Source: Candidatus Moranbacteria bacterium GW2011_GWE2_35_2-
GTDB taxonomy: Bacteria; Patescibacteriota; Minisyncoccia; Moranbacterales; UBA9337
Direction of reading: 5' to 3'
DNA: 64,000 nt
Assembly (NCBI GenBank): GCA_000990585.1
Contig: LBQD01000001.1
Coordinates: 207,276-271,275, forward strand
Part shown: piece after piece, positions 3,424-55,302 of the stretch
Layout: the number at the start of each line of letters is the position of its first letter
How positions within the stretch are numbered: position 1 is the stretch's first letter
Notes under the pieces: generated by a model
The model's database searches: none
The model's input: only the letters and a program-made list of their open reading frames with translations
What the model was told of the DNA's origin: nothing
Position numbers and translations under genes: made by a program

Positions 3424-3474
3424 AAAAAAATAATTCTGCGCAATTCCGGATAAAACCGCAAAAAATAAACTTGA

Positions 3475-4038
3475 TTATATATTATTTAAAAATCTCATAA
3501 TCCCATCATACCCCAAAGAATAGGTACCTGTCCAAAACACTGCTTGAAGCGATGTCATAAAAAAAATAACCAGTCCTTTTTTAAAGATAGTGTTGAGTTC
3601 ATTTTTAAAGTATTCGACCATTCTTTCCGGGCCATCCCAAATAGACGCTTTCAGTGCAAAAATGAAAAAAGAAGTCATACCGACCATTTTTGATTTAGAA
3701 AAAATTTTCCCAATAGATCTTCTATATTCTTGTCCTAAAGTCAAATCTTTTCCTGATTTAATGCAGATAATAAGAAGTAAGGTGGCTGAAATAAAATCAA
3801 AAGCCCACATCGCAAAAAATGCTTCCGCAAAACCCGATCCTGCCTGCTTAAATATGATTATCAAAAGAATGCTAAGTCCTGTTAATCCATAATCAAGAAT
3901 TGAATAAACAGCCCAGCGGATTACAATTGATTTTGTCCGTAAAAATTTTTCCCGTAAGGTTTCTTCACCTAATATCAGTCCGCTTCCGAGTATTATAACA
4001 GCCACCACCCCTAAAATTTTCGCAATATTCTCTTCCAT
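3475..4038 (-). CDS. Small integral membrane protein, unknown function
   Basis: 187 aa with several hydrophobic helices. Immediately downstream of the 62-bp repeat promoter element. Confidence 0.5.
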   Translation of the reverse strand: MEENIAKILGVVAVIILGSGLILGEETLREKFLRTKSIVIRWAVYSILDYGLTGLSILLIIIFKQAGSGFAEAFFAMWAFDFISATLLLIICIKSGKDLTLGQEYRRSIGKIFSKSKMVGMTSFFIFALKASIWDGPERMVEYFKNELNTIFKKGLVIFFMTSLQAVFWTGTYSLGYDGIMRFLNNI

Positions 4039-4046
4039 TAAATTAT

Positions 4047-4109
4047 TCTTAATTTCAAATCAACCAAATCCCAATTTCCACCCACTGCGTTTTATTATAC
4101 ATAAAAAAA
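4047..4109 (-). promoter_or_regulatory. 62-bp repeated promoter/5-prime-leader element, copy 1 (upstream of the 3475..4038 gene)
   Basis: Exact repeat of 9497..9560. On the minus strand it reads TTTTTTTATGTATAATAAAACGCAGTGGGTGGAAATTGGGATTTGGTTGATTTGAAATTAAG. TGTATAAT is an extended -10 box (complement of 4094..4099). About 45 nt of G-run-rich leader follow before the start codon. Confidence 0.5.
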
Positions 4110-4190
4110 TTTAGAAAAACAAATCTGACAAATAAAAAAGAGGCCGAATGGAAATCCATAAAGCCCCTTATGCTCGTACAAATAACTGCA

Positions 4191-5545: not shown

Positions 5546-6454
5546 CTATTTTTTAGGTATAAACACGAACTCTCCACAACCTGCTCCGACATCCTTACCT
5601 GCAGTCATAAATCTGACAATTTCATTTTCAACCCCATTATTTCTTAATTTATCTTCAAACTCTAATAAATCACCATAACCCGCCTTTTGATAATTGTCAA
5701 TATCGTTATTGGGTTCCGTTAATATTAGTTTAAAAATTTCCTTTTTGTCTTTTAGCAAATTTGCCAGTTTTTTAACATCTTCATTAAGATTATTAAATCC
5801 TAAAAACAACATGTAATTCAACCAAATAAATCTGCCTGTTTTTTTATAATAATCCTCAGCCGATTTAATAATTTCAGAAATTGAATACTTATTGGCAGCA
5901 GGCATAATTTTTTTTCTTTTTTCATCATCCGAAGCGTGCAAAGAAACCCAAAGGTCAATAGGAAGCTTTTCTTCCGCTAACTTATTCAATGAGTCAGGTA
6001 TTCCTACTGTCGCCAAGGCAATTCTTCTTATTCCGCTATACAAATCCTTTTTTTCTATAAGCTCTCTCATACAATTCACAACTTCGTCATAATTATCCAA
6101 TGGCTCACCTATTCCCATAAAAACAATACAATCAAATTTTTCAGTTTTTTCTTCCTTAGCTAAAACTCTTAACTCATCTTTCATTTCTTTCTTTGATAAA
6201 TTTCTCAAATATCCGTTTTTTCCCGAGGTGCAAAATTTGCAACCATATTTGCAACCCACTTGAGTCGAAATACAAGCATGCTCCTCCATCCTGCCATCCA
6301 TAATCATATGGAATGCCGCACTTTCAATCATATTTCCATCGTCTAATTTCAATCTCAGTTTTAAATCAGAAAGAGGCTGGAAGGTTTCTTTTTTCCATTT
6401 ATCTGTTTTTTGACGAGGATAACTATATTTTTTTCTATTTATAACTTTCATCAT
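5546..6454 (-). CDS. rlmN: Radical SAM 23S rRNA/tRNA adenine C2-methyltransferase (RlmN/Cfr family)
   Basis: ISTQVGCKYGCKFCTSG (CxxxCxxC preceded by SxQVGC), followed by GIGEPLDNY. This is typical of RlmN. Confidence 0.8.
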   Translation of the reverse strand: MMKVINRKKYSYPRQKTDKWKKETFQPLSDLKLRLKLDDGNMIESAAFHMIMDGRMEEHACISTQVGCKYGCKFCTSGKNGYLRNLSKKEMKDELRVLAKEEKTEKFDCIVFMGIGEPLDNYDEVVNCMRELIEKKDLYSGIRRIALATVGIPDSLNKLAEEKLPIDLWVSLHASDDEKRKKIMPAANKYSISEIIKSAEDYYKKTGRFIWLNYMLFLGFNNLNEDVKKLANLLKDKKEIFKLILTEPNNDIDNYQKAGYGDLLEFEDKLRNNGVENEIVRFMTAGKDVGAGCGEFVFIPKK

Positions 6455-6457
6455 TTT

Positions 6458-7489
6458 TTACCCAGCCACACCTGATTCTTTAATTTCAAAAATATTATTC
6501 CGAGAATCAAGCATCACTTTAGCTCCTAACGGCAAGGTCATTATTGGAGAGACATGACCAATGTTCGCATTAAATAAAATTGGATAATTATACTTCTTTG
6601 TATAATAATCAATAATTTTTCTAAGTTCTTTATTATCATCTTCATTATAAAAGTATGGTCTTCCGATTATTAACCCTTTTATATCCTTAAACACTCCTAT
6701 ATTATCTATATCAGCTAAAAATGAATCTAGATCAGCTAGAGGAAATTTTTCTCCCGGACTTGATTCGGGGATATCAATAAACATAATCTTATTTTTAAAA
6801 TCTACCCAGTATTCAGTTCCTGTGAGATGATTCATGGATGGAATACAACCTCCAAAAATTTGCCCTTGCGCTTTTCCTTTCTTCCACCATTCGTAACCTT
6901 TCGAAGGAGTTAGCTTCCTGGCTCTGGTTTGGTCTTTTTTCTCAAACCAATCCAAAAATTCCCAAGTCCAGGAATTAGACTGATTTACGTTACCAATCAC
7001 CTTATTATCCATTACTCCTTTTTCAAAATATTCCAACGTGTATGGCAAAACTTCAGGGTACTCTCCAAATTCAGAAATGATGCAGGGACCGTAATAAGTC
7101 CTTAAGTTAGCCTTTACCGCAAAAGCCATATGAAGCACTGTGATATCTGAATATCCTATAAAAATTTTAGGATTGTCCCTAATAACATCAAAATTAAGAT
7201 ATTTTAAAACTTGATTGGAATGGTCACCTCCAATTGTTGTGATTATCGCCTTAACTTCTTTATCTAAAAACATCTCGTGAATATCATCAGCCCTTTCTTT
7301 TCCCGAGGCAGATACGTAACCATTGTTTTTCAGCGAATTTTTTGCATATTTAATATTGAATCCTAATTTCAATAAATTTTTTTTTGCCTGTTCTATTCGA
7401 TGTGGAAAAATAGGACCCAAGCCTGCTGACGGAGAAACAATCCCGATTATATCGCCTTTCTTTAATTTTTTTGGAATAATTAAGTTCAT
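6458..7489 (-). CDS. LD-carboxypeptidase (peptidase S66, LdcA-like)
   Basis: N-terminal GDIIGIVSPSAG and central GYSDITVLH motifs of the S66 family. 3-bp gap to rlmN suggests an operon. Confidence 0.75.
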   Translation of the reverse strand: MNLIIPKKLKKGDIIGIVSPSAGLGPIFPHRIEQAKKNLLKLGFNIKYAKNSLKNNGYVSASGKERADDIHEMFLDKEVKAIITTIGGDHSNQVLKYLNFDVIRDNPKIFIGYSDITVLHMAFAVKANLRTYYGPCIISEFGEYPEVLPYTLEYFEKGVMDNKVIGNVNQSNSWTWEFLDWFEKKDQTRARKLTPSKGYEWWKKGKAQGQIFGGCIPSMNHLTGTEYWVDFKNKIMFIDIPESSPGEKFPLADLDSFLADIDNIGVFKDIKGLIIGRPYFYNEDDNKELRKIIDYYTKKYNYPILFNANIGHVSPIMTLPLGAKVMLDSRNNIFEIKESGVAG

Positions 7490-23283: not shown

Positions 23284-23820
23284 CTATTTTTTTCGGCGGC
23301 GGCGACATGCCGCAATTCCGCCTAACCCTGCACTAAGCAACCAAAATGCGCTTGGCACAGGCGTTGGTAATGGCTTTGGAATTAGCGTCTTTGACGCTAA
23401 TTCCACGTTGTCAATGTCTCCTGTCGCCCAAAACGACAGGAAAAACATCGACTCCTCCATATCCCACCCAGGAGGTGGGACTGCCGGTTGGAACGAATTC
23501 GTTCCAACCGAAAAAACTCCTCTTTTTGTATCCGCCCAAACCTCAATCTCCCCATCCGGGGACATTGAGGTAAAAGATTTGAGGGTAAAAGCGCCTCCAT
23601 CGAGGCGCTCTATTCCTACCCAACACCCTACATGGAGGTACCCCTCCTCCATAATCACATCCTCTGGTGCATCCAGAGGTGAGAAAACCCAGTAACCATC
23701 CGTTGTCAATGGCAGCTCTTCGCTGCCATCAAAACCAATGGTAGTCGCCGCCATACTCTGGCCGAAAAAAGAAAATACAGCAACGACAGAAAAAACAACA
23801 ATAATAATCGACTTTTTCAT
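23284..23820 (-). CDS. Secreted protein with a PEP-CTERM-like C-terminal sorting signal
   Basis: N-terminal signal peptide MKKSIIIVVFSVVAVFSFFGQSMA. C-terminus PLPTPVPSAFWLLSAGLGGIAACRRRRKK: a Pro-rich motif, then a hydrophobic helix, then an Arg/Lys tail. The gene is visibly GC-richer than its neighbours. Confidence 0.55.
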   Translation of the reverse strand: MKKSIIIVVFSVVAVFSFFGQSMAATTIGFDGSEELPLTTDGYWVFSPLDAPEDVIMEEGYLHVGCWVGIERLDGGAFTLKSFTSMSPDGEIEVWADTKRGVFSVGTNSFQPAVPPPGWDMEESMFFLSFWATGDIDNVELASKTLIPKPLPTPVPSAFWLLSAGLGGIAACRRRRKK

Positions 23821-37068: not shown

Positions 37069-38001
37069 TTGAATTATGAATTTTCAAAAATAACTATGGA
37101 AATAAAAACAATCTCTGATTCACAAAAAAAATATTTTCAAAAAATTGATTCTTTGGATCTTGAGCTTTTGATTGCGCATACTCTGGAAAAACCGCGGGAA
37201 TTTGTTTTAGCGCACCCAAAGTATGCACTAACACGAGATCAAGAATTGAGAATTGAAAACTATGCAAAACAAAGATTGAATAATGAGCCATTGGCATATA
37301 TTATTGGACACAAAGAATTTTTCGGACTAGATTTTAAAATAAACAAAAACACGCTCATTCCCCGTCCGGAAACAGAACAACTTGTTGAACTCGCGATTCA
37401 AGAAATAAAAAATAAAAGTCAAAAATCAATAATTATCGATGTGGGCACTGGAAGCGGATGCATCATAATCTCAATTGCAAAAAACAATAAGCAAAGAGCA
37501 ATGAACGATGTAAAATTCTATGCAACCGATATTTCCAGTGAAGCATTAAAAATTGCAAAACAAAACGCAACAGCACACGGAGTCGAAAAAAAAATAAAAT
37601 TCCTCCGCGGCAATCTCCTTGCTCCGCTTATTGGAAATTGGAAATTGGAAATTGGAAATTCCAGAATGATAATTCTGGCGAACCTCCCCTACCTCTCAAA
37701 AGAAATATATAATTCCACTTCTCCTGACGTGAAAAACTTTGAACCGAAATCGGCGCTTGTTAGCGCACACGCTGGACTTGCGCATTATGAAAAATTATTC
37801 AAGCAATTAAAAAAATTTCCGGCTGCAAATTGTAAGCTATCGATTATCCTAGAATTCAGTCCGGAACAAAAACCCTTACTGAAAAAAATAATTCCGAAAT
37901 ATTTCCCGAAAGCGGAAATAAAATTCCACAAGGACCTCTGCGGATTGTGGCGAATATGTAAAATCAATATTCTATCTTCACGCAAAAACCCGCTATTTTA
38001 G
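37069..38001 (+). CDS. prmC: Release factor glutamine N5-methyltransferase PrmC (HemK)
   Basis: IIGHKEFFGLDFKINKNTLIPRPETE, DVGTGSGCI motif I, and ANLPYL (an NPPY variant). Contains a heptamer repeat insertion. Confidence 0.75.
   Translation: MNYEFSKITMEIKTISDSQKKYFQKIDSLDLELLIAHTLEKPREFVLAHPKYALTRDQELRIENYAKQRLNNEPLAYIIGHKEFFGLDFKINKNTLIPRPETEQLVELAIQEIKNKSQKSIIIDVGTGSGCIIISIAKNNKQRAMNDVKFYATDISSEALKIAKQNATAHGVEKKIKFLRGNLLAPLIGNWKLEIGNSRMIILANLPYLSKEIYNSTSPDVKNFEPKSALVSAHAGLAHYEKLFKQLKKFPAANCKLSIILEFSPEQKPLLKKIIPKYFPKAEIKFHKDLCGLWRICKINILSSRKNPLF
37631..37658. repeat. (TTGGAAA)x4 heptanucleotide microsatellite inside prmC
   Basis: Four exact tandem copies encoding the extra segment GNWKLEIGN just upstream of the NPPY-like motif. 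Confidence 0.8.
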
Positions 38002-38040
38002 CGGGTTTTTGCTTGAAGAACTAAATGACTTTTTTAAAAG

Positions 38041-38178
<138 letters not shown>

Positions 38179-38674
38179 GTTGTTCCACCTCCTTTTCTTT
38201 AAAAAATTTCTTCCGGCATTTTTGCCATTGAAACTTTTAATTTTAATTTTTATTTTTATCTTAATCTCTCAAATTTTAATTTTTATTTTTGCGCCGTATT
38301 AAAAATATTTTTTTATAAAATAATTTATATTTTTATCTATCATAATTATAGAACATATATATTTTTATGCAAGTGTTTTTTGTAAATTTTTTGTAAAATA
38401 TTTTTCAATAACATTTTTTATCTTACTTTAATAAAAAATAATTTTTTATTAAAAATTATGATGACCAATTTTAAAAAAAATAAAATCCACGCATATTTTA
38501 AAATGGCACAAAAATATGTATTTGTCCAGTGTTGACTATCTGGCTATGTAAAGTTAAAATTAAAAGACAAAGTTGGTCGAAAAGTTACACCCGCAAAATT
38601 CGGGCCAGCTTCAACGAAAGCTGAACCTTAACAATTAAACATCTCTACTTAAAAGAGATACTCTAGAGAGGAAG

Positions 38675-46046: not shown

Positions 46047-47632
46047 TTCTCAATCAACGAATTCAAATTCATTTCCTTGGGCTTTTTTACTTGCATAATA
46101 TCCAGAATTGTCGGCGCGATATTTCCAAGCACTCCGCCTTTTTTCAATTTTTTATTTTTAAATTTTTCACCAACAATCACAAAAGGAACGACGTTTTTTG
46201 TATGAAAAGTATGTTTTCTTTTTTCTTTGTCAATTTTGTCAACCATAACTTCGGCGTTTCCATGATCTGCTGTTATCACAATATTCCCGTCCACTTTCAA
46301 AATTTCAACTACGATATTTTCCAATTGCCTGTCAACAAACTCTGCCGCTTTGATTGTCGCTTTGATGTCTCCCGTATGCGCCACCATATCCGCATTGGCA
46401 AAATTAATTGCGATAAAATCATACGCCTTATTTTTTATAGCCACCACTACCTTATCGGCAATTTTTTTTGCTGACATTTGCGGACAATCAACATATGAAT
46501 CAATAATCGGCGATGGAACCATAAACCAATCCTCGCCATCCACGGGATCCGGATAGCCGCCATTGAAAAAATATGTAATGTGGGCATATTTTTCACTCTC
46601 AGCAATATACATTTGTTTTTTTCCATTTAGTACCATCGGAAGAGTCGCCTCAAGCGTTCTTCCTGGAAAAGCCGTATGAATATCCAAATCCGGTCCAAAA
46701 TCTGTCATTGCGACAAAATACAAATTTTCCAAATGATCAATAATCGGCATATCATCAGCCAACGCCCGATCTCTGTTCACTGCGACAAAGAGCTTGGAAA
46801 ATTGACGTGCCCGATCAGAACGTAAATTATAGAAAATAATACTGTCATTTTTCTTTAATTTAATTATTGGTTTTTCATTTTCAAAAATAACTGTCGGTAA
46901 AATATATTCATCCGTCAAATTATTTTTATACGCATTTCTAATCGCTTCTTCCGGACTGTTCGCTTTTTGACCAAGTGAAAAAACAATTGCGTCATAGGCA
47001 AGCGCCAGACGCTTCCAATTCTTTGCCCGATCCATTGCATAAAATCTTCCAGAGATTGTCGCTATTTTTCCAATTCCTTCCTGACGGATGATCTCTTGAA
47101 AATTTTTCAATTGATCCAATGCGCTTTTGGGATATGAATCCCTACCATCAGTAAACAAATGGCAATATACTTCTTCTATTCCATTTCTTTTTGCCAATTG
47201 CAACAACGCACGAAAATGCTCTGGATTGCTGTGCGGACTGTCAACATCACTCATTAGTCCCATAATGTGAAAATTTCCTTTGTTTATTTTTGTATGTCGC
47301 ACCGCGCCTATTAGAATAGGATTTTCAAAAAAAGATTTATTTTTAATACTTTCACTAATAAAATGAGAATCTTGCGCCACAACTCTGCCGGCGCCGATGT
47401 TCATATGTCCGGCCTCAGATCCACTCATTTGATTATCATCCAGTCCGACATTTTTTCCTGTCGCTTCCAATGTCGTAAAAGGATATTTTTTAAAAATTTC
47501 ATCCAAAAAAGGAGTTTTCGCCAAATAAATAGCATTACCCTCGGAAGGCGGAGCAATCCCCCACCCATCCAAAATAATCAAAACTGTCGGAGCCTTTTTC
47601 CCGCCAATTATTTTTTTCAAAAAATTCATCAT
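46043..47632 (-). CDS. gpmI: 2,3-bisphosphoglycerate-independent phosphoglycerate mutase
   Basis: VLIILDGWGIAPPSEGNAI N-terminus. Metalloenzyme core HTGDI and ITADHGN. Start set at the MMNFLKK methionine. Confidence 0.85.
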   Translation of the reverse strand: MMNFLKKIIGGKKAPTVLIILDGWGIAPPSEGNAIYLAKTPFLDEIFKKYPFTTLEATGKNVGLDDNQMSGSEAGHMNIGAGRVVAQDSHFISESIKNKSFFENPILIGAVRHTKINKGNFHIMGLMSDVDSPHSNPEHFRALLQLAKRNGIEEVYCHLFTDGRDSYPKSALDQLKNFQEIIRQEGIGKIATISGRFYAMDRAKNWKRLALAYDAIVFSLGQKANSPEEAIRNAYKNNLTDEYILPTVIFENEKPIIKLKKNDSIIFYNLRSDRARQFSKLFVAVNRDRALADDMPIIDHLENLYFVAMTDFGPDLDIHTAFPGRTLEATLPMVLNGKKQMYIAESEKYAHITYFFNGGYPDPVDGEDWFMVPSPIIDSYVDCPQMSAKKIADKVVVAIKNKAYDFIAINFANADMVAHTGDIKATIKAAEFVDRQLENIVVEILKVDGNIVITADHGNAEVMVDKIDKEKRKHTFHTKNVVPFVIVGEKFKNKKLKKGGVLGNIAPTILDIMQVKKPKEMNLNSLIEN

Positions 47633-47674
47633 AAAGTAATTATACCACAAAATATCTATATGCTCATTGTTAAA

Positions 47675-47710
47675 CAAAAAACATCCCAGTTATCAAATAA
47701 TTGGGATGTT
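47675..47710 (-). terminator. Rho-independent terminator downstream of the HExxH gene
   Basis: On the minus strand: aacatcccaattatttgataactgggatgtt followed by TTTTTT. Confidence 0.5.
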
Positions 47711-47806
47711 TAAGGGTGGCTATAATTAGTTTTTTGCCTGCCCGCCCTTAGAAGAAATGCCGAAATTTAAAACTCTTTACCATAAATCAAAGCGACCCTA
47801 TAAATA

Positions 47807-48517
47807 TCACTGCTTAATAATGCCGATTGCTTCATCAATTAAATTTTGAAAGTTTCTATTTTTTGACCAAATATTTCTCAGCTTTTTTCGCAATTCTTGA
47901 TGTTCGGGATAACCATCATCTTGAGACAAAATAATATCCTCGAATTCCGGCTCGTTCAATAAAAAAGTTAGTGCCTCTTTTAGATTCTCAATTTGATTAT
48001 TCTTCAGCCCATTCTTTTTTAAGTAATTCTTGTAATACGTTAGAAATTGTAAATGCATTAATTCATGACAAATCGTCGTAATTGAAAAAGGGGTGCTATG
48101 CCACATTGAAACCATGAACCAATTTTCTTTTTCATTATACGGACACACCAGTCCAGTAGTAAAATAGCAACTAAATTTTTCGGTAAAAACAGGTTGCTCC
48201 GTGATAACCGAAAGTATTTTAAAATATTTTTTTTCGACTACCCGCCATGATTTTTCCAAGGCTTGCATCTCAGCCTTCATAACTTTATTTTTATATTCTT
48301 TTTTTGAATCTTTTTCAATGTAATCCTCGACTATTTTTTGAGCACGAAAAAAACTAACTTTTTCAATTTTTTCCAAAAGCTCATCGGGGATTTGGGCAAT
48401 CTGATCACGCCAGCTCAAGCCCCACATATTCTTGTCTTTCGCAATAAGCACCCAGCTCCATGCATCTTTTTTAATATTGTAATCGAAATTTAATTTAATC
48501 ATGATGTAAGTATACAA
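47807..48517 (-). CDS. Putative zinc metallopeptidase (HExxH motif), unknown family
   Basis: ICHELMHLQF HExxH motif in a 236-aa soluble protein. Immediately downstream of the RiPP maturase. Confidence 0.45.
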   Translation of the reverse strand: MYTYIMIKLNFDYNIKKDAWSWVLIAKDKNMWGLSWRDQIAQIPDELLEKIEKVSFFRAQKIVEDYIEKDSKKEYKNKVMKAEMQALEKSWRVVEKKYFKILSVITEQPVFTEKFSCYFTTGLVCPYNEKENWFMVSMWHSTPFSITTICHELMHLQFLTYYKNYLKKNGLKNNQIENLKEALTFLLNEPEFEDIILSQDDGYPEHQELRKKLRNIWSKNRNFQNLIDEAIGIIKQ

Positions 48518-48565
48518 AAAAAATGAGGAGTAATCAAATGAATTTGATCACCCCCCCCTTGAAAC

Positions 48566-49942
48566 TCACTTTGCCTGGTCGTACAGATCCCAGATCAACC
48601 AGGTTAATGTATCCTTTGCGTGAACGCAGAATCCCTCATCGATCTCCCAGATACTACCATTATTCAGATCAGCATTGTGAGGACAACCGCCTCCGCAAAT
48701 CGTCAACGCTTTGCAGTCGTAACACTTAGGCATGTTGAGAGGAGATCGTCTACTCCACTCTTTCCAGAACGGATGCTCGAATGGATCAAAATCGGAGTCC
48801 GGATTGACGAAGAACTCCCCTGTGCCACTATATGCATGACACACACCAATCCTCCCATTCGGGAGAATCACGACCTGCTTTCCGCATCCGCAACAGTCAC
48901 GGTCGTAGATTGTTCCATCAACGAACGCCCTCACTTTGCGCATCATTCGCGCTTCATAGATTCCTCTTTCTCGCGCGATCTTAAAGCACTCAATCATCGC
49001 CTGTGCTACCTTACTGGAATAACTTGGATCGTTGATTTTGTACTGGTGACTATTGAGCAAGGGATTAAACCCAACATTACACACTCCCGCACCATCCAGA
49101 AACCAATTGAAAATGGCCGGAAGTTCTTCGACATTTTTTTCACTAACCGTGCAAGAAATGCACGTTTTTGCCCCGACCTCCTTGAGAATTGCTACTCCTC
49201 GCATAACATCATCAAAAGTTCCTCTATTATTCCCGCCTCGCCACACGCGACAAGCGTCATGCACAGACCGATATCCATCCAGAGAAACATCCACCTCGAT
49301 ATTATGCTTTGCGCAGAAAGTGGCAATTTCTCGAGTTATCAAGGATCCATTGGTATTGATATTCATCGCCAGGTTTTTTGGCAACACGCCTGACTCCTTG
49401 AGAGTTTCCACTTCCTCAACAGTGGCAAAAAATATGTCGACGTTAATAAGAGGCTCTCCTCCGTAAAAAACGACGCTCGATTCATACGGATAAAAGTCGC
49501 TATACCCACAGGCCTTTTTGAAAAAACCTGCGAACTGCCTCACTGCGGAGATAGCCATCTTTTTCGTCATGTTCATTATCTTTTCTTTCGGACCACTGTA
49601 AGATCCTTCGAAAAAACAATAGGTACAAGCGAAATTACAGCTATTCGTCAAAAGTAAATACAGTGTGTCGATACACGGATGCTGAAGGATTGATTTCTGA
49701 AGTACTTCCAGATCTTCTTTTTCATCAGCATCGCTGGACACCACAAGCTTCTTCTGAATCAAGTAGTCCATCGTTTCATCGTTGATATCCGAAAAAGATA
49801 CGTGAGATAAACGATTACGGATGTTTGTAAGATCAGCGTTATTCACGAAGATAACTTCCCGCGATAAGGCATGAAAAATTGCCGTAATGCCACCTCTTTC
49901 GAAAAAGTGCACGAAATTAGAAAACCTCAGCGCATCCTTCAT
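48566..49942 (-). CDS. Radical SAM / SPASM-domain peptide maturase (sactipeptide/ranthipeptide/SCIFF-maturase-like)
   Basis: CNFACTYC (CxxxCxxC) about 100 aa from the N-terminus, leaving room for an RRE-like domain. C-terminal SPASM cysteines CCGCGKQVVILPNGRIGVCHAY and CYDCKALTICGGGCPH. Start set at the ATG (49942) preceded by SD aagggagga. The ORF track uses an in-frame ATG 48 nt further upstream. Confidence 0.85.
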   Translation of the reverse strand: MKDALRFSNFVHFFERGGITAIFHALSREVIFVNNADLTNIRNRLSHVSFSDINDETMDYLIQKKLVVSSDADEKEDLEVLQKSILQHPCIDTLYLLLTNSCNFACTYCFFEGSYSGPKEKIMNMTKKMAISAVRQFAGFFKKACGYSDFYPYESSVVFYGGEPLINVDIFFATVEEVETLKESGVLPKNLAMNINTNGSLITREIATFCAKHNIEVDVSLDGYRSVHDACRVWRGGNNRGTFDDVMRGVAILKEVGAKTCISCTVSEKNVEELPAIFNWFLDGAGVCNVGFNPLLNSHQYKINDPSYSSKVAQAMIECFKIARERGIYEARMMRKVRAFVDGTIYDRDCCGCGKQVVILPNGRIGVCHAYSGTGEFFVNPDSDFDPFEHPFWKEWSRRSPLNMPKCYDCKALTICGGGCPHNADLNNGSIWEIDEGFCVHAKDTLTWLIWDLYDQAK

Positions 49943-50003
49943 TTCAATCCTCCCTTTATATAAGTTGAGGGGAATACGAATCGATCGCATCCCCCTCGGT
50001 TTC

Positions 50004-50168
50004 TTACGGTTTCTTGATTACTCTACCAACGCCAGTGCATTTGCATGCCTGACCTCCGCCTCCGCCAGTGCAGGATGCACAAGCACCGCACTTGAGGTTC
50101 ATAGCAACCTTTGACTCAAGGTTGCCAAGCACTTTGCGATAGTGCTCGTCTTTCGGGATAAGCAACAT
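50004..50168 (-). CDS. RiPP precursor peptide (54 aa, Cys/Gly-rich core; SCIFF/ranthipeptide-like), missed by the ORF track
   Basis: Manual minus-strand translation gives MLLIPKDEHYRKVLGNLESKVAMNLKCGACASCTGGGGGQACKCTGVGRVIKKP. Strong SD aggaggtga lies 7 nt upstream of the ATG. The stop is 61 nt upstream of the maturase ATG. Confidence 0.65.
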   Translation of the reverse strand: MLLIPKDEHYRKVLGNLESKVAMNLKCGACASCTGGGGGQACKCTGVGRVIKKP

Positions 50169-50233
50169 TTTTTATCACCTCCTTTCGATTTTGAATGAAC
50201 GATCATGAGCTATCACTATGCTAACCTTGCCAC

Positions 50234-50262
50234 ACATTATCAATCCCTCCCCATTTTGTCAA
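50234..50262 (-). promoter_or_regulatory. Consensus-like sigma70 promoter driving the precursor-maturase cassette
   Basis: On the minus strand: TTGACA (complement of 50257..50262), a 17-nt spacer, then TAATGT (complement of 50234..50239). About 65 nt upstream of the precursor ATG. Confidence 0.5.
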
Positions 50263-50281
50263 ACGATTTAGCTTATTTTCA

Positions 50282-51535
50282 TTACTTTCTCAAAAATCTA
50301 TAAACAATAAACAGGAGTGCTAATGAAGATAAAATCAGAATTGATGACAGTAAATATGGAATCCTTTCCGAAATTGGTTTTTTTGGAACTTCCTTTGGAA
50401 TAAAACTTTGATTTTCTTTTTGCGCCGACAATCCAATTAATTTCGCATTTTCAACATCCAGATATTGAAAATATTTTTCAATATCATATTGCGGATATTC
50501 AGCTTCCTTGTTTCCATAATATATCCGATATTTCTCACTTCCACTGGCTTGAAAAATTACCTCCCGATAAACCGAATAAGCGGTAATACTTATAAAATTC
50601 AAAGATTCATTATCTTTATTCAAAACCTCCAACTTTATATATCGATCAGTAATTTCCGGGAAATTCAATTCTGAATTTTCTCCGGAAAATTTTGCAGTCT
50701 CATAATTAAATATATAGTCTTGCGCAACCTTTTTTAAATTATCCAAATTATTTCCGGAATAAATTATAACTCCGCGGTTAAAATTAGAACCTTCCGCTCT
50801 CAAGTCCAAACGGTTAACCGGAATACCGGACACTCCCAAATCGGCAATAATTTCTGTTGATTTTCGCTGACTATTGTCTTGAACGCTAAAGCTTACTTTC
50901 CTTTTTAATTCTTGCATTTTTTGTTTGACGGAATGCTTTGCCCGAGCGGAAGTCGCCCTAACCGGACTCTCTCCTTGACCGGCAATTTCCACCTTCAAAT
51001 AACGAAAACTTACTTCTTCCGAAAATTGAATTGTGTTATTGGAAGCCTTAAAGTTGCCTTTCACATCCGTATAATCATAAATATAGGCATTGTCTTTGAT
51101 AACATTCCAATTTTTCATATCACTGCTTCCATAGACAATCACGCTTCTTTGATAATTTTGAGAATCTGTAGTTAAAATCAGACCGTTAGTTAGTTTTCCA
51201 TCAACACCCAGATCCAAAATAACTGAAGAATATTGATCGGCAACATATGAATTATCAATCATTTTAACAGAATAAGTTTCATCAGTTATTCCGGAATTTC
51301 CCGAAAAAAGCTTGAATGGAACTTCCCTGTTTGCATTTTCCATAATCCGAATATCGCTAAAATTTTCATTAGACTGAGAAAATATTTCGTCATCAAATCC
51401 CACTTTAATCAAGCCATTTTCTGTATCGCTAAATTCCACGTCCTTGTAATATGTCCATTCGGAAATATTAAACGCTCCGTGTGCTACTAATGGAAAAATA
51501 GAGAGAAACATTCCTGTGATTAATATTTTTTTCAT
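50282..51535 (-). CDS. Secreted protein with two internally repeated domains and a C-terminal TM anchor (possibly DUF3999-like)
   Basis: Signal peptide MKKILITGMFLSIFPLVAHGA at the canonical ATG (51535). Internal duplication (YQRSVIVYGSSDMKNWNVI and FNRGVIIYSGNNLDNLKKV). C-terminal hydrophobic plus basic tail. Confidence 0.45.
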   Translation of the reverse strand: MKKILITGMFLSIFPLVAHGAFNISEWTYYKDVEFSDTENGLIKVGFDDEIFSQSNENFSDIRIMENANREVPFKLFSGNSGITDETYSVKMIDNSYVADQYSSVILDLGVDGKLTNGLILTTDSQNYQRSVIVYGSSDMKNWNVIKDNAYIYDYTDVKGNFKASNNTIQFSEEVSFRYLKVEIAGQGESPVRATSARAKHSVKQKMQELKRKVSFSVQDNSQRKSTEIIADLGVSGIPVNRLDLRAEGSNFNRGVIIYSGNNLDNLKKVAQDYIFNYETAKFSGENSELNFPEITDRYIKLEVLNKDNESLNFISITAYSVYREVIFQASGSEKYRIYYGNKEAEYPQYDIEKYFQYLDVENAKLIGLSAQKENQSFIPKEVPKKPISERIPYLLSSILILSSLALLFIVYRFLRK

Positions 51536-51603
51536 AATTATTATTTGTTGTTGCAAAACCCGTGCGCCTTTCAAACCACCAGACGAGTGAATCCTGCGCT
51601 ACG

Positions 51604-53565
51604 TTAAATTATTTCTTTTATCTTATCCTTGTATCGGTTGTAAGCAAATGAAATTCCCAAGAGAATTACACCGAGCGTCATTGAAGAGATTATTCGATAC
51701 AAAGTCCCCAAACTCCACAAATCTACAAAGAAAAGTTTTAAAATAGCCAGGAATAACAAAATTAATCCGCCTACTCTTACTCCCTTGCGTCCTCGCGTCA
51801 TACCGACTGCTACTAAAATTATTCCATACAAAAGCCAGAAAATCGACAAAATTACACTATTCCTGCTTTGCAGACCCTTGATCTTAGTGTGATCATATTT
51901 TGCGATAGCGACAGTGCTGGCAGAATTTAACGCATTGCCCTGAACACGATCATTTTCAATGGCAACCCGAGATTCTTCCCGCACTTGATCTATTTTATTC
52001 TGATAATAATTATTTATCTCGCGACTGCCGGTGAAAATAGTCAAAAAATTAGCCACAATAAACATCAGGATTGCAATCTGCTTCGCTGCCAAGAAACTTT
52101 CAGGTTTTTCCTTTTCCTCATCACTTGAGATTACAGAAAACAAAAATGCTGCCGCGTAAGAAATCACGATTGCAAAAAGAGCGGTAAAGAAAAATTTATT
52201 TGCCAAAACAGAATGTGAAGAATAAAACACATCTATCATAAAAATTCTGAAAATTGCCAGTCCGAAAATCAACAAGCCGAAAGATTTAATAATCACCTGC
52301 TCCTTATTTTTGACTGCAATCAGGAATAATAAAATAGCCTCAATCAACCATCCGCTGGTTATTGCCACTCCCTGAAACTGGATAGGAATTACCAATGTAG
52401 CAAAACCTATCGTGAGAAAAGCCAGAAATCCATATAGTTTATCATCTTCCGGAGTTAAATATTTCACCAAATAAGCCCACGAGAAGTAATATATTCCCAA
52501 AATCAAAGCAAAAAATCCCATAAATGAATGATGCTGTCCATTCATCAGACTATAACTGGCGATAAAATAAGTTGTTCCCGATAGAAGTAATAAAATCTGT
52601 TCAACTGCCTCCGATTTTTCCTGCCGTACGATATTGTAAATCAATGAGGATATTGTGTAGATGAAAAAAAACAAAGTCAGGAAAAACATCGTACTTCCCA
52701 ATTGAGCTTGCGTGTAAAAACTCGCACCCCAAACAAAGAAAAGAATTCCGGTTCCGGCAAAACCGATAAAATTAAGCGCTCTCCATTTTCGAAAAAATGA
52801 AATCACCAAAATCGCCACATCCAAAATAAAAATATAAAAAAACAATGAGAATTGATTATTCTGACCCGTTGAAATCAAGAGCGGAGTAGAAAAACCGCCC
52901 AAAATAGCAACAGTCATCAGGGAAATAGCATTGTATCTGAGACTAAGAACAATGCCCACGGCAGTAACCAAAATCATTCCGAAAAAGGATGCAATCGGAC
53001 CAAGCAAGCTATAAAAATCAAAGGCTGCAAAAACAGAAAGGTATAAAATCGCAATTCCGCCCCCGGTTATTATTTGACCGTAAGAAAAATATTTTCGAAT
53101 ATATTTTTCTCCCGCGACCAGCAAAGACATTCCGATCATAATTCCCATTAAAACTCTCCCTGTTTCTCCAATCCAATTATTATCAAAAGCATATTTAAGG
53201 AGAAAAGAAACCCCCAAAACCAAAGCAGTGATGCCGATTCTAGCAAACCATTTTCCTCCAATATTTCCCTCTAAATCACTTTCCTCTTTGGAAGCGGACT
53301 CTTCCTGGAGAGTTATTCGCTCATCACTTGATTCCGCTGATACTTGCTTAATAGGTTGCGACACTTCTTCAGTCGGAGAAGGCGGGGTCGGCGCAAAAGA
53401 AGCACTCTCTTTTTCCTGGGCAACATCGACAAAATTACTTCCGGCATTAAGTCGCGATTCCAGAAGAGAGATCCTTTGATCTTGTTTCTCAACCACACTG
53501 CCAATTTCATCCAATTTAGTTAATATTTTTTCATAAATCTCCTTTTCCCCGTTTGAATTCTCCAT
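51604..53565 (-). CDS. Multi-pass membrane protein with an N-terminal coiled-coil region (DUF2339-like)
   Basis: 653 aa. Hydrophilic N-terminal ~90 residues, then more than 12 hydrophobic helices. Confidence 0.45.
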   Translation of the reverse strand: MENSNGEKEIYEKILTKLDEIGSVVEKQDQRISLLESRLNAGSNFVDVAQEKESASFAPTPPSPTEEVSQPIKQVSAESSDERITLQEESASKEESDLEGNIGGKWFARIGITALVLGVSFLLKYAFDNNWIGETGRVLMGIMIGMSLLVAGEKYIRKYFSYGQIITGGGIAILYLSVFAAFDFYSLLGPIASFFGMILVTAVGIVLSLRYNAISLMTVAILGGFSTPLLISTGQNNQFSLFFYIFILDVAILVISFFRKWRALNFIGFAGTGILFFVWGASFYTQAQLGSTMFFLTLFFFIYTISSLIYNIVRQEKSEAVEQILLLLSGTTYFIASYSLMNGQHHSFMGFFALILGIYYFSWAYLVKYLTPEDDKLYGFLAFLTIGFATLVIPIQFQGVAITSGWLIEAILLFLIAVKNKEQVIIKSFGLLIFGLAIFRIFMIDVFYSSHSVLANKFFFTALFAIVISYAAAFLFSVISSDEEKEKPESFLAAKQIAILMFIVANFLTIFTGSREINNYYQNKIDQVREESRVAIENDRVQGNALNSASTVAIAKYDHTKIKGLQSRNSVILSIFWLLYGIILVAVGMTRGRKGVRVGGLILLFLAILKLFFVDLWSLGTLYRIISSMTLGVILLGISFAYNRYKDKIKEII

Positions 53566-53595
53566 TTTTTTGTTTTAAAAGATAAAAATTATTAT

Positions 53596-54033
53596 TTATT
53601 GAAAATAGCGTCCGAAAATAATTAATACAACAATTATCACGACAAAAACCAGACCAAGTGCAAAACTAGACATAATTCCATAGGAAATATACCTGCGTCT
53701 ATTAAAAAGATAAATTATTGCAAATATCTCCAAAGGAAAAGCGATGAAATTCACCAAGGGAATGAATCCTAAAACAAAAGGAGAAATGAGTCCGAAAAAA
53801 AAGTCTTTGTTTTTTTCTCCGGAAGCGGTATATTCTCTTTTATTTTTGAAATTCCAAAAGTCATTTCTCGCTCCCCGTGTTTTATCCCCGGTAATATCGC
53901 CTCCGTAAACCGCTACCAAACTTTGCGCGATATCATCTTCTGTATATCCCGCCTTTTGCAACTCTTTTTTCAAAACTTCTTTTGAAAACTTATCCTTATT
54001 AGCCTGAATGTAATTAATAGCGTTTTGACTCAT
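53596..54033 (-). CDS. Small protein with C-terminal TM helices, unknown
   Basis: 145 aa. Soluble N-terminal half and a hydrophobic C-terminal half. Confidence 0.4.
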   Translation of the reverse strand: MSQNAINYIQANKDKFSKEVLKKELQKAGYTEDDIAQSLVAVYGGDITGDKTRGARNDFWNFKNKREYTASGEKNKDFFFGLISPFVLGFIPLVNFIAFPLEIFAIIYLFNRRRYISYGIMSSFALGLVFVVIIVVLIIFGRYFQ

Positions 54034-54042
54034 TTTTTTGTT

Positions 54043-55302
54043 TTAAATTTTTAGGTCTTCGCTAATTTTCAGCAACCGGTTATATTTGCAAATTCTTTCA
54101 CCTCTTGAAAGTGAACCGGTTTTTATGTAGTCTGCATCCGCTCCCACTGCCAAATCGGCAATAAAATCATCTGTCGTTTCTCCGCTCCGATGAGAAATAA
54201 CCGTTTTCATTCCATTAGCTTTAGCAAGCTTGATGCACTCAATAGTTTCCGTGAGCGTTCCGATTTGGTTTACTTTAATAAGAACACTATTGCAAGCTTT
54301 TTCGGTAATCGCCGTCTGCAATCTTTTCACATTAGTCACCAGTAAATCATCTCCGATCAGCATTATTTTCTTTCCCAACTTCTCATTCATCATCGCCCAA
54401 CCTTTCCAATCTTCCTCACCCAGTCCATCCTCGATGGAAATAATATTATATTTTTCAATCCAATCTTTATACAAATCCAAAAGTTCCTCTTTACCGAGAG
54501 TTTTTCCTTCCGGCTGTAATAAATATTTTCCGCTTTTTTCATCAAAAAAAGAATTAGCCGCCACATCCAAACCGATGTTCGCTTGCTTTCCCGGTTCGTA
54601 TCCTGCCGTTTTAATCGCTGTGTTTATTATTTCCAACGCCTGTGAATTGCTTTTCAAACGAGGAGCAAACCCTCCTTCATCCCCCACTCCGGTGCTGTAT
54701 TTTTTTTCCGTCAAACTTTTTTTAAGAGCGTAAAAAATCTCACTCCCTGCTCGAAGCTGTTCGCAGTATTTTTCAATTCCATCAGGAACCAGTTTGAATT
54801 CCTGAACACAAAGACCGGAATCACTATGCTGACCTCCATTGAGGATATTAAACATTGGAAAAGGCATCTTTTTTTCTTTGGAAAAGTTAAAGGTATCGGA
54901 AATATATTCATACAACTCTTTTTTTTTGTCCATCGCCGCTGCCCGACAAACTGCCAAAGAAACTCCCAAGATTGCATTAGCTCCAAGACGAGATTTATTT
55001 TCCGTCCCATCCAATTCAATTATTTTACGATCGATTTTTTCCTGCTCGCCAACTTCCATTCCAACCGCCGCTTTGGCAATTTCATTGTTCACATTTTCCA
55101 CCGCTTTGAGAACTCCTTTTCCTCCATATCTTTTCTTGTCGCCATCGCGAAGTTCCAATGCCTCGTGTGATCCGGTCGACGCTCCACTTGGCACTGCCGC
55201 CACCGACTTTATTCCATTTTCCAATTCCAATTCAACTTCCACTGTCGGATTTCCCCTCGAATCCAAAATTTCCCGCGCAACTACTTTTTTTATTTTTATC
55301 AT
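54043..55302 (-). CDS. eno: Enolase
   Basis: KVVAREILDSRGNPTVEVE N-terminus. SHRSGETED catalytic motif. Confidence 0.9.
   Translation of the reverse strand: MIKIKKVVAREILDSRGNPTVEVELELENGIKSVAAVPSGASTGSHEALELRDGDKKRYGGKGVLKAVENVNNEIAKAAVGMEVGEQEKIDRKIIELDGTENKSRLGANAILGVSLAVCRAAAMDKKKELYEYISDTFNFSKEKKMPFPMFNILNGGQHSDSGLCVQEFKLVPDGIEKYCEQLRAGSEIFYALKKSLTEKKYSTGVGDEGGFAPRLKSNSQALEIINTAIKTAGYEPGKQANIGLDVAANSFFDEKSGKYLLQPEGKTLGKEELLDLYKDWIEKYNIISIEDGLGEEDWKGWAMMNEKLGKKIMLIGDDLLVTNVKRLQTAITEKACNSVLIKVNQIGTLTETIECIKLAKANGMKTVISHRSGETTDDFIADLAVGADADYIKTGSLSRGERICKYNRLLKISEDLKI

Follow-up and report, generated by a model that had tools for sequence, protein, structure and literature searches.

A probable horizontally acquired, Patescibacteria-specific three-gene RiPP cassette with a FibroRumin-like radical-SAM/SPASM maturase in a Moranbacteria genome

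Overview

The small genome of a Moranbacteria member of the candidate phyla radiation (CPR) carries a 2.5-kb inserted unit encoding a Cys-rich peptide, a radical-SAM enzyme and an HExxH protein. We consider it probable that this unit is a three-gene RiPP cassette, self-contained and acquired horizontally, and that within the FibroRumin-like radical-SAM/SPASM superfamily it represents a clade specific to Patescibacteria. Here we document its gene content and conservation, the co-divergence of its genes, the cofactor motifs and folds of the encoded proteins, and its regulatory hairpins. On the basis of sequence comparisons the system appears as a clade sister to FibroRumin and restricted to Patescibacteria. 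Newly defined are a precursor class (K-C-G-x-C-x-x-C followed by a Gly-rich spacer and then C), a maturase clade outside the curated FibroRumin models, and a nameless protein family represented by the third gene.

Gene content and extent of the cassette

The DNA that was analysed, a stretch of 64,000 nucleotides referred to as the window, had been described from its letters alone in an earlier note, which pointed to a complete RiPP-type cassette with a precursor gene and, downstream of it, a radical-SAM/SPASM maturase gene whose product has an N-terminal extension of RRE size. Both genes are indeed present where they had been placed, and so are the promoter, the Shine-Dalgarno sequences and the C8 tract (Table 1). 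The word "complete", however, does not hold: a third conserved gene, coding for the HExxH protein (47807..48502), lies outside the claimed span, the left edge of which (48540) is situated between gene 2 and gene 3 within the conserved cassette.

Table 1. Coordinates of the cassette, its genes and its predicted expression signals in the window
Feature	Position	Strand	Basis or remark
Transferable three-gene unit	47756..50279	-	blastn against the L009 cassette
Putative promoter P1 of the peptide-maturase operon	50234..50262	-	read from sequence
Shine-Dalgarno sequence of the peptide gene, AGGAGGTGA	50183..50175	-	read from sequence
Precursor peptide gene (54 aa, five Cys)	50168..50004	-	ORF read from sequence
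GC-rich hairpin, 13 bp stem	49967..49997	-	6 nt downstream of the stop codon of the peptide gene; -23.6 kcal/mol
Shine-Dalgarno sequence of the maturase gene, GGGAGGA	49954..49948	-	read from sequence
Maturase gene (458 aa)	49942..48566	-	start at the ATG having a Shine-Dalgarno sequence
Intrinsic terminator of the peptide-maturase operon	48516..48556	-	terminator scan
Putative promoter P2 of gene 3 (TTGATT, 17 nt, TATACT)	48509..48537	-	promoter scan
Gene 3 (231-aa cytoplasmic HExxH protein)	47807..48502	-	
Hairpin and T-run downstream of gene 3, likely terminator	47672..47711	-	inverted repeat I4; -13.8 kcal/mol, z = -4.1

The extent of the unit is given by its closest relative, the cassette of locus L009, which is 85.6% identical to the window at the nucleotide level over exactly 47756..50279 (blastn) and has unrelated flanks. 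The gene order peptide, maturase, HExxH protein recurs in 14 loci with flanks that differ in each, and gene 3 follows the maturase gene in every close relative. Maturase and gene 3 co-diverge, with identities to the window proteins of 89/87, 78/74, 76/71, 71/77, 66/68 and 60/61% (maturase/gene 3) among the relatives. No exporter or immunity gene belonging to the three-gene unit was found.

A histidine kinase gene that adjoins the cassette in two loci was considered as a further member and rejected, the homologue in the window being located 46 kb away (414..1661). Histidine kinase homologues were observed a few kb or less from the maturase gene in eight loci.

The precursor peptide

The precursor (MLLIPKDEHYRKVLGNLESKVAMNLKCGACASCTGGGGGQACKCTGVGRVIKKP) consists of a leader with the conserved motif IPxxxxYRKVLGxL and a core reading K-C-G-A-C-A-S-C-T-G5-Q-A-C-K-C-T-G; a spacer of 61 nt separates its gene from the maturase gene. 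This 54-aa ORF with five Cys had been recognised correctly, and it is conserved beside related maturases: 22 homologues have been called as genes, and uncalled copies also occur, upstream of every close maturase gene. K26, C27, G28, C30 and C33 are invariant in the peptide alignment and C42 is nearly so. Four of the five Cys are thereby conserved in the clade, the Cys being the sole strictly conserved side chains of the core, which lacks Asp, Asn or other obvious acceptors.

The best family for the peptide is TIGR04135 (22.1 bits, E 1.1e-4, cutoff of 45 not reached), and no other model was returned by the NCBIfam scan at E <= 1; PADLOC and PHROGs gave no match. At the level of the superfamily, Cys-rich precursors with a related leader are positioned upstream of nearly all of the 79 best loci, and their core patterns are diverse (CxxCxxC, CxCxCxC, CxxCxCxC).

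The maturase

The mechanically called maturase ORF comprises 474 aa and begins at an upstream ATG inside a hairpin, while homologues have 457 aa; the start listed here gives 458 aa (Table 1). An RRE-like domain occupies about residues 1-90 of the protein and precedes the radical-SAM core, with a seven-Cys SPASM domain at the C-terminal end. PF04055 matches with 54.6 bits, above its gathering threshold of 29.5, and is the sole Pfam model reported. The CxxxCxxC motif (C102/C106/C109) is invariant in all 84 superfamily members, and the SPASM Cys C350, C368, C407, C410, C416, C420 and C439 are present in 82-84 of the 84. Their arrangement (C350...G363xxxxC368; C407xxC410x5C416x3C420; C439) follows the seven-Cys SPASM pattern CX9-15GX4C, gap, CX2CX5CX3C, gap, C. 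The proposal of a radical-SAM enzyme with a SPASM domain is thus borne out by these conserved Cys and by PF04055, PF13186 (SPASM) not being returned by the Pfam search at E <= 1.

Among family models the best match is TIGR04136 (279.9 bits, E 3.6e-83, covering positions 1-454 of 458; cutoff of 400 not reached), followed by the models for PapB (146 bits) and CefB (126 bits). PADLOC and PHROGs gave nothing beyond a generic viperin-core similarity. The AlphaFold model (pLDDT 88.5) has a beta-sheet (strands 11-16, 19-24 and 30-34) and three helices (35-46, 56-63 and 75-84) at its N-terminus, where a PqqD-like RRE would have a three-stranded sheet and then three helices. It is CteB-like over its full length, the RRE-like domain included, and its fold fits the SPASM enzymes CteB, anSME and SuiB. 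CteB (5WGG; TM 0.74/0.77, E 6e-19) and TigE (8VPO) are the closest structures, with alignments that take in their N-terminal domains. By sequence, the nearest solved enzyme is TigE (8VPO, E 2e-20, residues 16-441), with anSME, ChlB and SuiB also near.

The HExxH protein

The product of gene 3 carries the motif C145-H146-E147-L-M-H150 together with invariant E176, E184, H201 and R205; the HExxH sits on a zincin active-site helix within a zincin fold, and the invariant E176 and E184 are candidate metal ligands. Its sole family match is a RiPP maturation metalloprotease, with NF058609 scoring 15 bits (E 0.013; cutoff of 225 not reached). No Pfam family passed (M78, E 0.16), PADLOC and PHROGs gave no match, and neither Foldseek against the PDB (no significant match) nor a profile search of PDB sequences identified a relative. 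The nameless family to which it belongs comprises 483 clusters at 50% identity and is genetically tied to these maturases. A dedicated HExxH gene was not found beside the superfamily members of Firmicutes, Bacteroidota, Proteobacteria or DPANN archaea.

Promoters, hairpins and terminators

The predicted promoter P1 is composed of TTGACA (50262..50257), a spacer of 17 nt and TAATGT (50239..50234). It was not listed by a strict consensus scan because its -10 box fits TATAAT at only three of six positions. Comparable signals (a TTGACA or TTGACT -35 box, 16-18 nt and a -10-like hexamer) are present upstream of the peptide gene in L009 and four other relatives. The 5' UTR of the peptide gene has no stable fold (z = +1.1).

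The energy of the hairpin following the peptide gene is low compared with shuffled sequences (z = -4.5), and a hairpin of -20 to -31 kcal/mol occurs at this position in 8/8 cassettes with differing stem sequences; it likely acts as an attenuator or as a transcript-stabilising element at the junction between precursor and maturase. The operon terminator consists of a 14-bp hairpin followed by T8 (-19.8 kcal/mol, z = -4.4), and the C8 tract (48551..48558 on the + strand) corresponds to a G8 run that forms the 5' arm of this hairpin. All eight cassettes have a hairpin and a T-run after the maturase gene.

The -35 box of P2 lies within the descending arm of the terminator and its -10 box ends 6 nt before the ATG of gene 3. 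Since gene 3 has no Shine-Dalgarno sequence, its transcript would be of the leaderless type. P2-like sequences (TTGATT or TTGATA, a spacer of 16-19 nt and a TATAAT-like box) were detected in seven of the eight cassettes, and the gap between -10 box and ATG is exactly 6 nt in five of the eight. The hairpin downstream of gene 3 is situated outside the DNA homology with L009 and may therefore be part of the host DNA at this junction. A search of 47400..50600 against Rfam identified no family, the single match having 17.6 bits relative to a threshold of 150.

Relation to known systems

Both window genes best match the two partner models of FibroRumin (TIGR04135/TIGR04136), a system defined computationally. 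Shared features are a precursor directly upstream of the maturase gene, a Cys-rich core, the order of RRE-like, radical-SAM and seven-Cys SPASM domains and the leader motif Y-x-K-[VM]-[LF]-G-x-[LI]. The scores, however, set the window apart: FibroRumin maturases of Lachnospiraceae and Atopobium reach 794 and 808 bits on TIGR04136, where the window protein has 279.9 (the controls Desulfosporosinus and a Paceibacterota member gave 462 and 403 bits), and Firmicutes precursors reach 52-68 bits on TIGR04135, compared with 22.1 for the window peptide. The core of FibroRumin is CACVACNSCTCACSC, which differs from the K-C-G-x-C-x-x-C, Gly-rich spacer, C arrangement, and its precursors come as tandem pairs whereas the window has a single one. 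Unlike FibroRumin, the window cassette has a dedicated HExxH partner and Patescibacteria hosts.

The second and third best models, for PapB/freyrasin-type ranthipeptide maturases (NF047865) and for CefB maturases with Cys at every fifth position (NF038107), represent Cys-directed radical-SAM/SPASM enzymes. The scores of the window maturase fall well short of both cutoffs (340 and 600), and the window core has neither CxxxD nor an every-fifth-Cys periodicity. The cyclopropylglycine synthases TigE/TvgB (PDB 8VPO; PMC10878394) have the same domain order as the maturase with an identity of only about 20%, and they act on Val-containing repeat peptides instead of Cys-rich cores.

Full-text literature searches returned no paper with "FibroRumin", "TIGR04135" or "TIGR04136" and no published product for the superfamily; for ranthipeptides or radical-SAM enzymes in Patescibacteria/CPR they returned generic gene-cluster surveys only.

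Proposed mechanism and meaning

We propose that P1 would drive a bicistronic mRNA with strong ribosome-binding sites, on which the hairpin after the precursor gene may bias expression towards the peptide. Judging from the fold, the putative N-terminal RRE of the maturase would bind the leader through IPxxxxYRKVLGxL. The radical-SAM cluster would then cleave SAM and, together with the SPASM auxiliary clusters, the enzyme would cross-link the K-C-G-x-C-x-x-C...C core. By analogy with CteB and PapB the cross-links are, on balance, expected to be thioether bridges from Cys sulfur to carbon; the acceptor atom of such bridges is C-alpha in sactipeptides and C-beta or C-gamma in ranthipeptides. This chemistry is not assured because, among solved enzymes, the cyclopropylglycine synthase TigE has the closest sequence. 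The same cassette might instead perform C-C cross-linking or cyclopropanation, epimerisation or Cys oxidation, with a product that could be a metal-binding Cys/Gly-rich peptide. The proximity of TigE, anSME, ChlB and SuiB, the diversity of core patterns in the superfamily and the lack of Asp or Asn acceptors would all accommodate such chemistry. We nevertheless regard it as a clearly less probable outcome, given that strict conservation of core side chains is limited to Cys, that the next family models (PapB and CefB) are thioether-forming or Cys-directed, and that the seven-Cys SPASM arrangement is as in CteB.

Gene 3 would be transcribed separately, probably into a leaderless mRNA, from the promoter inside the maturase terminator, to give a cytoplasmic zincin for which leader removal is the most probable function. 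As a candidate leader peptidase, an assignment to which we give close to even chances, it differs from the known RiPP zincin leader peptidases (M1-family EryP/AplP and YydH/LiaK) in belonging to no Pfam, NCBIfam or PHROG family, and with only 231 aa it would therefore be a bare catalytic domain. HExxH motifs and a zincin-like fold are also found in alpha-KG HExxH oxygenases (ChlH, PflC/PosC), which adjoin or are fused to RiPP radical-SAM enzymes (PMC12636437). That gene 3 is an iron/alpha-ketoglutarate tailoring enzyme of this kind (hydroxylation or oxidative cleavage), or acts in some other way that does not involve proteolysis, for example as a regulator or an immunity protein, appears unlikely to us.

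CPR genomes are tiny, and very few biosynthetic gene clusters can be recognised in them; therefore a conserved, exchanged cassette offers a rare handle on how these episymbionts might signal to or act on hosts and neighbours. As the superfamily apparently has no published product, a single solved structure would serve to annotate several hundred loci in Patescibacteria, DPANN archaea and gut Firmicutes; all three cassette genes are small. More speculatively, and with considerable doubt, the product could be a Gly-rich peptide, Cys-cross-linked or metal-binding, of a class that is new in structure, and the HExxH partner a new kind of RiPP-processing enzyme rather than an ordinary leader protease. 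Horizontal spread of the cassette among episymbiotic Patescibacteria might then be due to a role of the peptide in interactions with hosts or competitors, and the sister cassettes of DPANN archaea may serve the same purpose.

Host range and acquisition

All homologues above about 55% identity that have a taxon label are from Patescibacteria. Among species-representative genomes, Patescibacteria lineages account by label for 41 of the best 79 loci and DPANN archaea for 5, and superfamily members from Firmicutes have 36% identity or less. The view that such loci are typical of Clostridia and not of reduced genomes does not agree with this distribution.

Acquisition by insertion is supported by empty sites, by variable context and by DNA homology that does not extend beyond the cassette. 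In five syntenic relatives the DUF3999 gene is followed by iPGM within about 11-26 bp with no cassette in between. None of the iPGM-anchored loci that retain upstream sequence has a cassette there, about 30 of them showing enolase or the DUF3999 gene instead. The genomic context of the cassette is different in every other genome, and the L009 copy, with its unrelated flanks, derives from a marine-biofilm MAG. The donors were likely other Patescibacteria and not Clostridia.

A search around the cassette for transposase, integrase and terminal direct or inverted repeats revealed nothing convincing, no target-site duplication was found, and there are no tRNA genes in the window that could be integration sites. 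Together with the host-like GC of gene 3 and the distance of the relatives with empty sites (63-67% iPGM identity), the lack of a mobility gene and of a target-site duplication would fit vertical inheritance of a cassette that was ancestral at the site and lost in the relatives. We judge this to be quite unlikely in view of the cassette-free iPGM-anchored loci, the different contexts in other genomes, the 85.6% identical DNA in the marine-biofilm MAG, and the atypical GC3 of maturase and peptide gene.

Still less probable, indeed very improbable, is a clostridial-type SCIFF/ranthipeptide locus recently moved from Clostridia, with the GC island as the transferred DNA. The affiliation has a basis in architecture: SCIFF/CteB systems (TIGR03973/TIGR03974; thermocellin-type ranthipeptides) too have a precursor and a radical-SAM/SPASM maturase with an RRE or RRE-like N-terminus, a dedicated transporter is absent from both loci, the best structural match is CteB, and the GC3 outliers are real. 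HMM scores, however, rule out SCIFF membership. TIGR03974 gave 95.5 bits against a cutoff of 425 (tenth among families), and no SCIFF precursor model matched the peptide because TIGR04135 was its only NCBIfam model at E <= 1. Moreover, the SCIFF precursor has six Cys in about 45 residues, compared with five (four conserved) in 54 aa in a different pattern, the maturase is only 18% identical to CteB, and to our knowledge SCIFF loci are without an HExxH partner. The labelled homologues of 55-89% identity are all from Patescibacteria, and the GC step leaves out gene 3, itself a member of the transferred unit.

A chimeric assembly, named by the earlier note as what would undo its reading, is excluded: one contig does end within the maturase gene, but four assemblies, which differ in sample and assembler, agree with the window at 99.98-100% identity along 10.5 kb that include both junctions, and the locus is present on 24 contigs.

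Base composition

Relative to 49 other genes (GC 0.360 +/- 0.036, GC3 0.327 +/- 0.044), the maturase gene has a GC of 0.448 (z = 2.5) and a GC3 of 0.486 (z = 3.6), and the peptide gene a GC of 0.509 (z = 4.2) and a GC3 of 0.527 (z = 4.6); just 0.3% of maturase-sized windows have a GC of at least 0.448. The contrast that had been noticed by eye is thus real when computed. It does not mark the edge of an island or argue for transfer, because the GC3 step is found within the cassette itself and recurs in relatives whose flank GC is quite different, and it was rejected as an island-versus-host boundary. Hence, of the earlier case for horizontal acquisition, insertion is upheld by the syntenic relatives, while the GC contrast as evidence and Clostridia as source are not. 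We also note that the GC3 split is located inside a cassette whose genes co-diverge.

Gene content of the cassette

A conserved order of three genes, encoding a small peptide, a radical SAM maturase and a protein of 231-234 aa (gene 3), was found in every contig with a close maturase homologue (55-89% identity), and the neighbours beyond these genes vary between contigs. The earlier note had presented peptide and maturase as a complete cassette and missed gene 3, which always follows the close maturases; its two ORFs, 61 nt apart, were confirmed, and the Shine-Dalgarno sequences, the promoter and the C8 tract that it named are all present. The ORF list gives a 474-aa version of the maturase, which starts within a hairpin and lacks a Shine-Dalgarno sequence; the homologues have 457 aa.

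Table. Features of the cassette, its surroundings and related loci (window coordinates unless a locus is named)
Feature	Position	Strand	Basis or remark
Predicted promoter TTGACA-17-TAATGT, upstream of peptide	50262..50234	-	Read from sequence
Peptide Shine-Dalgarno AGGAGGTGA		-	Read from sequence
Precursor peptide, 54 aa, MLLIPKDEHYRKVLGNLESKVAMNLKCGACASCTGGGGGQACKCTGVGRVIKKP	50168..50004	-	ORF reading
GC-rich hairpin after peptide stop codon	49997..49967	-	-23.6 kcal/mol, z = -4.5
Maturase, 458 aa	49942..48566	-	ORF reading; Shine-Dalgarno GGGAGGA
Maturase SPASM cysteines	C350, C368, C407, C410, C416, C420, C439		Conservation in superfamily alignment
Predicted terminator (hairpin + T8) after maturase	48556..48516	-	z = -4.4
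C8 tract	48551..48558
Gene 3	48502..47807	-	Third conserved gene; beyond the span of the earlier note
Host iPGM start	47632..47660	-	Extended -10 TGGTATAAT
DUF2339 membrane protein	50282..54033
DUF3999/F5_F8-type-C protein	54043..55302
Sensor kinase directly adjacent to cassette	L003 4195..5559; L007 8165..9628
Sensor kinase within a few kb	L016, L017, L026, L028, L040, L059
Window homologue of sensor kinase	414..1661

Family assignment of maturase and precursor

The top NCBIfam match of the maturase, by far, is TIGR04136 (FibroRumin system radical SAM peptide maturase), aligned end to end at 279.9 bits (E 4e-83; below the curated cutoff of 400 bits), followed by PapB (146 bits), CefB (126 bits) and then anSME, and the Pfam search returned PF04055 alone. 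The peptide has a single NCBIfam match, TIGR04135 (FibroRumin family radical SAM-modified Cys-rich RiPP; 22.1 bits, E 1e-4, below the curated cutoff of 45 bits), which is the partner model of TIGR04136. Lachnospiraceae and Atopobium, used as positive controls, score 794-808 bits (maturases) and 52-68 bits (precursors) on these models; the window's clade, one Nanoarchaeota member and several other CPR (Patescibacteria) clades fall below both cutoffs. The SCIFF affiliation proposed previously does not hold, with the maturase reaching only 95.5 bits on TIGR03974 (cutoff 425), far behind TIGR04136. Judged by sequence, the window's clade is a sister of the FibroRumin family and, by curated criteria, a member neither of that family nor of SCIFF.

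Of 84 superfamily sequences, 82-84 retain the cysteines of the CxxxCxxC cluster (C102/106/109) and the seven of the SPASM domain. In the AlphaFold model (pLDDT 88.5) the predicted N-terminus is a beta-sheet plus three-helix domain, probably of the RRE type, and the model superposes over its full length on CteB (5WGG, TM 0.74/0.77), then on TigE (8VPO), anSME, ChlB and SuiB. Since the best structural match, CteB, is a thioether-forming SCIFF maturase whereas the nearest solved enzyme by sequence, 8VPO, is a cyclopropylglycine synthase (PMC10878394), the exact chemistry is not readable from homology.

Among 27 aligned clade members, K26, C27, G28, C30 and C33 of the peptide are invariant, P5, Y10, L14, G15, N24, L25 and C42 are nearly so, and the fifth cysteine (C44) is limited to an ACKCTGVG subclade that includes the window. 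A different, near-identical core, C-x-C-S-C-T-[AS]-C-S-S-C-R-C-T-P-C, is common to a WWE3 bacterium (L017, 3728..3907), a Nanoarchaeota MAG (L018, 279..449) and a Patescibacteria MAG (L021, 1136..1306), whose maturases are >50% identical; this reflects either CPR-DPANN cross-domain exchange or a binning error. At several loci of Firmicutes and Proteobacteria, two or three distinct precursors lie in tandem, and a Bacteroidota MAG (L048) has two paralogous maturases in tandem (2558..3952 and 4001..5374; 35% and 32% identical to that of the window).

Gene 3

In the gene 3 protein a C-H-E-x-x-H-L-Q-F motif is invariant, as are E176, E184, H201, R205 and three cysteines elsewhere. No family was found for it in Pfam, PHROG or PADLOC, and its sole NCBIfam match, with the model for the YydH/LiaK metalloprotease of RiPP maturation, is weak (E 0.013). 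The role that we tentatively favour is that of a candidate leader peptidase, for which the chances appear close to even; an oxygenase or another role seems unlikely. Maturase and gene 3 co-diverge (identities to the window 89/87, 78/74, 76/71, 71/77, 66/68 and 60/61%), and diverged copies of gene 3 (22-53% identity) adjoin more distant maturases in approximately 12 further Patescibacteria-type loci. Beside Firmicutes, Bacteroidota, Proteobacteria and DPANN maturases no gene 3 homologue was found, with the exception of one 3.3-kb contig binned as Gammaproteobacteria. Grouped at 50% identity, the homologues retrieved by exhaustive searching fall into 483 clusters, almost all of them 210-250 aa long. 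Some loci have a second, strongly diverged paralogue (25-30% identity) within approximately 1.5 kb of the first (L010, 7579..8205; L033, HExxH genes at 5711..6178 and 6424..6816).

Transcription signals

A classic element of RiPP operons is a hairpin next to the precursor gene that biases the ratio of precursor to enzyme. Both the hairpin after the peptide and the predicted maturase terminator, of which the C8 tract forms the 5' arm of the stem, lie at the same positions in 8/8 cassettes examined, with differing stem sequences. The putative gene 3 promoter (TTGATT-17-TATACT) lies within and just past this terminator, an arrangement readable in seven of the eight cassettes. Only 6 nt separate its -10 from the ATG, and the start lacks a Shine-Dalgarno sequence. 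Gene 3 would thus constitute a separate transcription unit, whose transcript is probably leaderless. The host iPGM (phosphoglycerate mutase) gene has a start of the same leaderless type (-10 ending 6 nt before the ATG, no Shine-Dalgarno sequence), whereas the genes for peptide and maturase have strong Shine-Dalgarno sequences.

Distribution

The window comes from a CPR/Patescibacteria genome: the product of the gene just downstream matches a hypothetical protein of Candidatus Moranbacteria bacterium GW2011_GWE2_35_2- at 100% identity. All homologues above approximately 55% identity with a taxon label are from Patescibacteria, and the donors were likely Patescibacteria as well, judging from these matches. 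At 32-42% identity, the wider superfamily is abundant in CPR and DPANN archaea, which account for 41 and five of the 79 best loci, and has members in Firmicutes, Bacteroidota, Proteobacteria and Cyanobacteria as well; it is therefore wrong to regard such systems as alien to reduced genomes. In eight Patescibacteria loci a HisKA/HATPase sensor kinase lies no more than a few kb from the maturase, and its window homologue (49% identical) lies 46 kb off; a connection with peptide signalling may exist but is not conserved. In L007 a 523-aa DUF4135 protein (N-terminal domain of LanM-type lanthionine synthetases; 3401..4972), approximately 0.8 kb upstream of the cassette, may be a nearby second peptide-modification function.

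A radical SAM/SPASM enzyme acting on a Cys-rich RiPP is a well-known kind of system. A full-text literature search gave no mention of "FibroRumin", "TIGR04135" or "TIGR04136", and on Patescibacteria or CPR in combination with ranthipeptides or radical SAM it gave generic gene-cluster surveys only. The new elements are a core specific to this clade, an architecture of three genes that is restricted to Patescibacteria and includes a HExxH protein without a name, a promoter embedded in a terminator, and a transfer that can be demonstrated at the level of the cassette.

Insertion site and assembly

The locus is present on 24 contigs, and in four assemblies (different samples and assemblers) a 10.5-kb stretch across both junctions matches the window at 99.98-100% identity, which rules out a chimeric assembly. 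One 107-kb contig (L130) ends at its position 1 inside the maturase gene (approximately window 48895), in the most GC-rich 100-bp stretch of the locus (0.53); the contig end may mark a break in coverage or assembly at the compositional step.

Empty sites were searched for using the downstream housekeeping gene iPGM as anchor. Five metagenomic relatives (63-67% iPGM identity) have the order enolase, (145-aa gene), DUF2339, DUF3999, iPGM, with 11-26 bp between the DUF3999 gene and iPGM and without the cassette, and in approximately 25 others enolase lies directly beside iPGM. The most similar cassette is that of L009, a Patescibacteria MAG from a marine biofilm; DNA identity to it is 85.6% across window 47756..50279, covering the three genes and the peptide-maturase promoter and stopping there. 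The empty sites and these homology limits support the horizontal acquisition suggested in the earlier note, and on this sequence evidence we take the cassette to have been acquired horizontally. No transposase, integrase, tRNA or terminal repeats marking it were found in the window. The DUF2339-DUF3999 block (with the 145-aa gene) separates enolase from iPGM in the window and the five relatives, and the cassette sits after it; this looks like an insertion nested in an earlier one, at a recurrent insertion site. The only mobility gene found near any copy is an rve-family transposase in the related locus L001 (8630..9568), 0.5 kb downstream of gene 3; the same locus has a B12-binding radical SAM protein (4092..5393) 0.4 kb upstream of the precursor.

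Base composition

The segment judged GC-rich by eye is so on computation: among 51 gene-sized ORFs, maturase (GC 0.448, GC3 0.486) and peptide (GC 0.509, GC3 0.527) have GC3 z-scores of 3.6 and 4.6, compared with means of 0.360 ± 0.036 (GC) and 0.327 ± 0.044 (GC3) for the remaining genes. A GC of at least 0.448 occurs in 0.3% of maturase-sized windows, every one at the cassette locus. Since the excess sits at third codon positions, it is not merely an effect of Gly, Ala and Cys codons. As evidence of acquisition, and as an island edge, the GC3 step was rejected: in five relatives (L009, L001, L005, L010 and L011) the split between maturase (GC3 0.39-0.50) and gene 3 (0.26-0.36) is kept whatever the GC3 of the flanks (0.30 to 0.47), so that either gene is the outlier, depending on the host. 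This split parallels the differing expression signals of the two genes.

The sole other strong composition outlier in the window is a 178-aa ORF (23284..23820, minus strand; GC 0.490, GC3 0.469) with a C-terminal PEP-CTERM-like match (20.3 bits, just under the Pfam threshold of 20.7). The GC minimum of the window (0.218, at 38001..38500) lies between opposite-strand genes and has a strong AT skew (-0.33).
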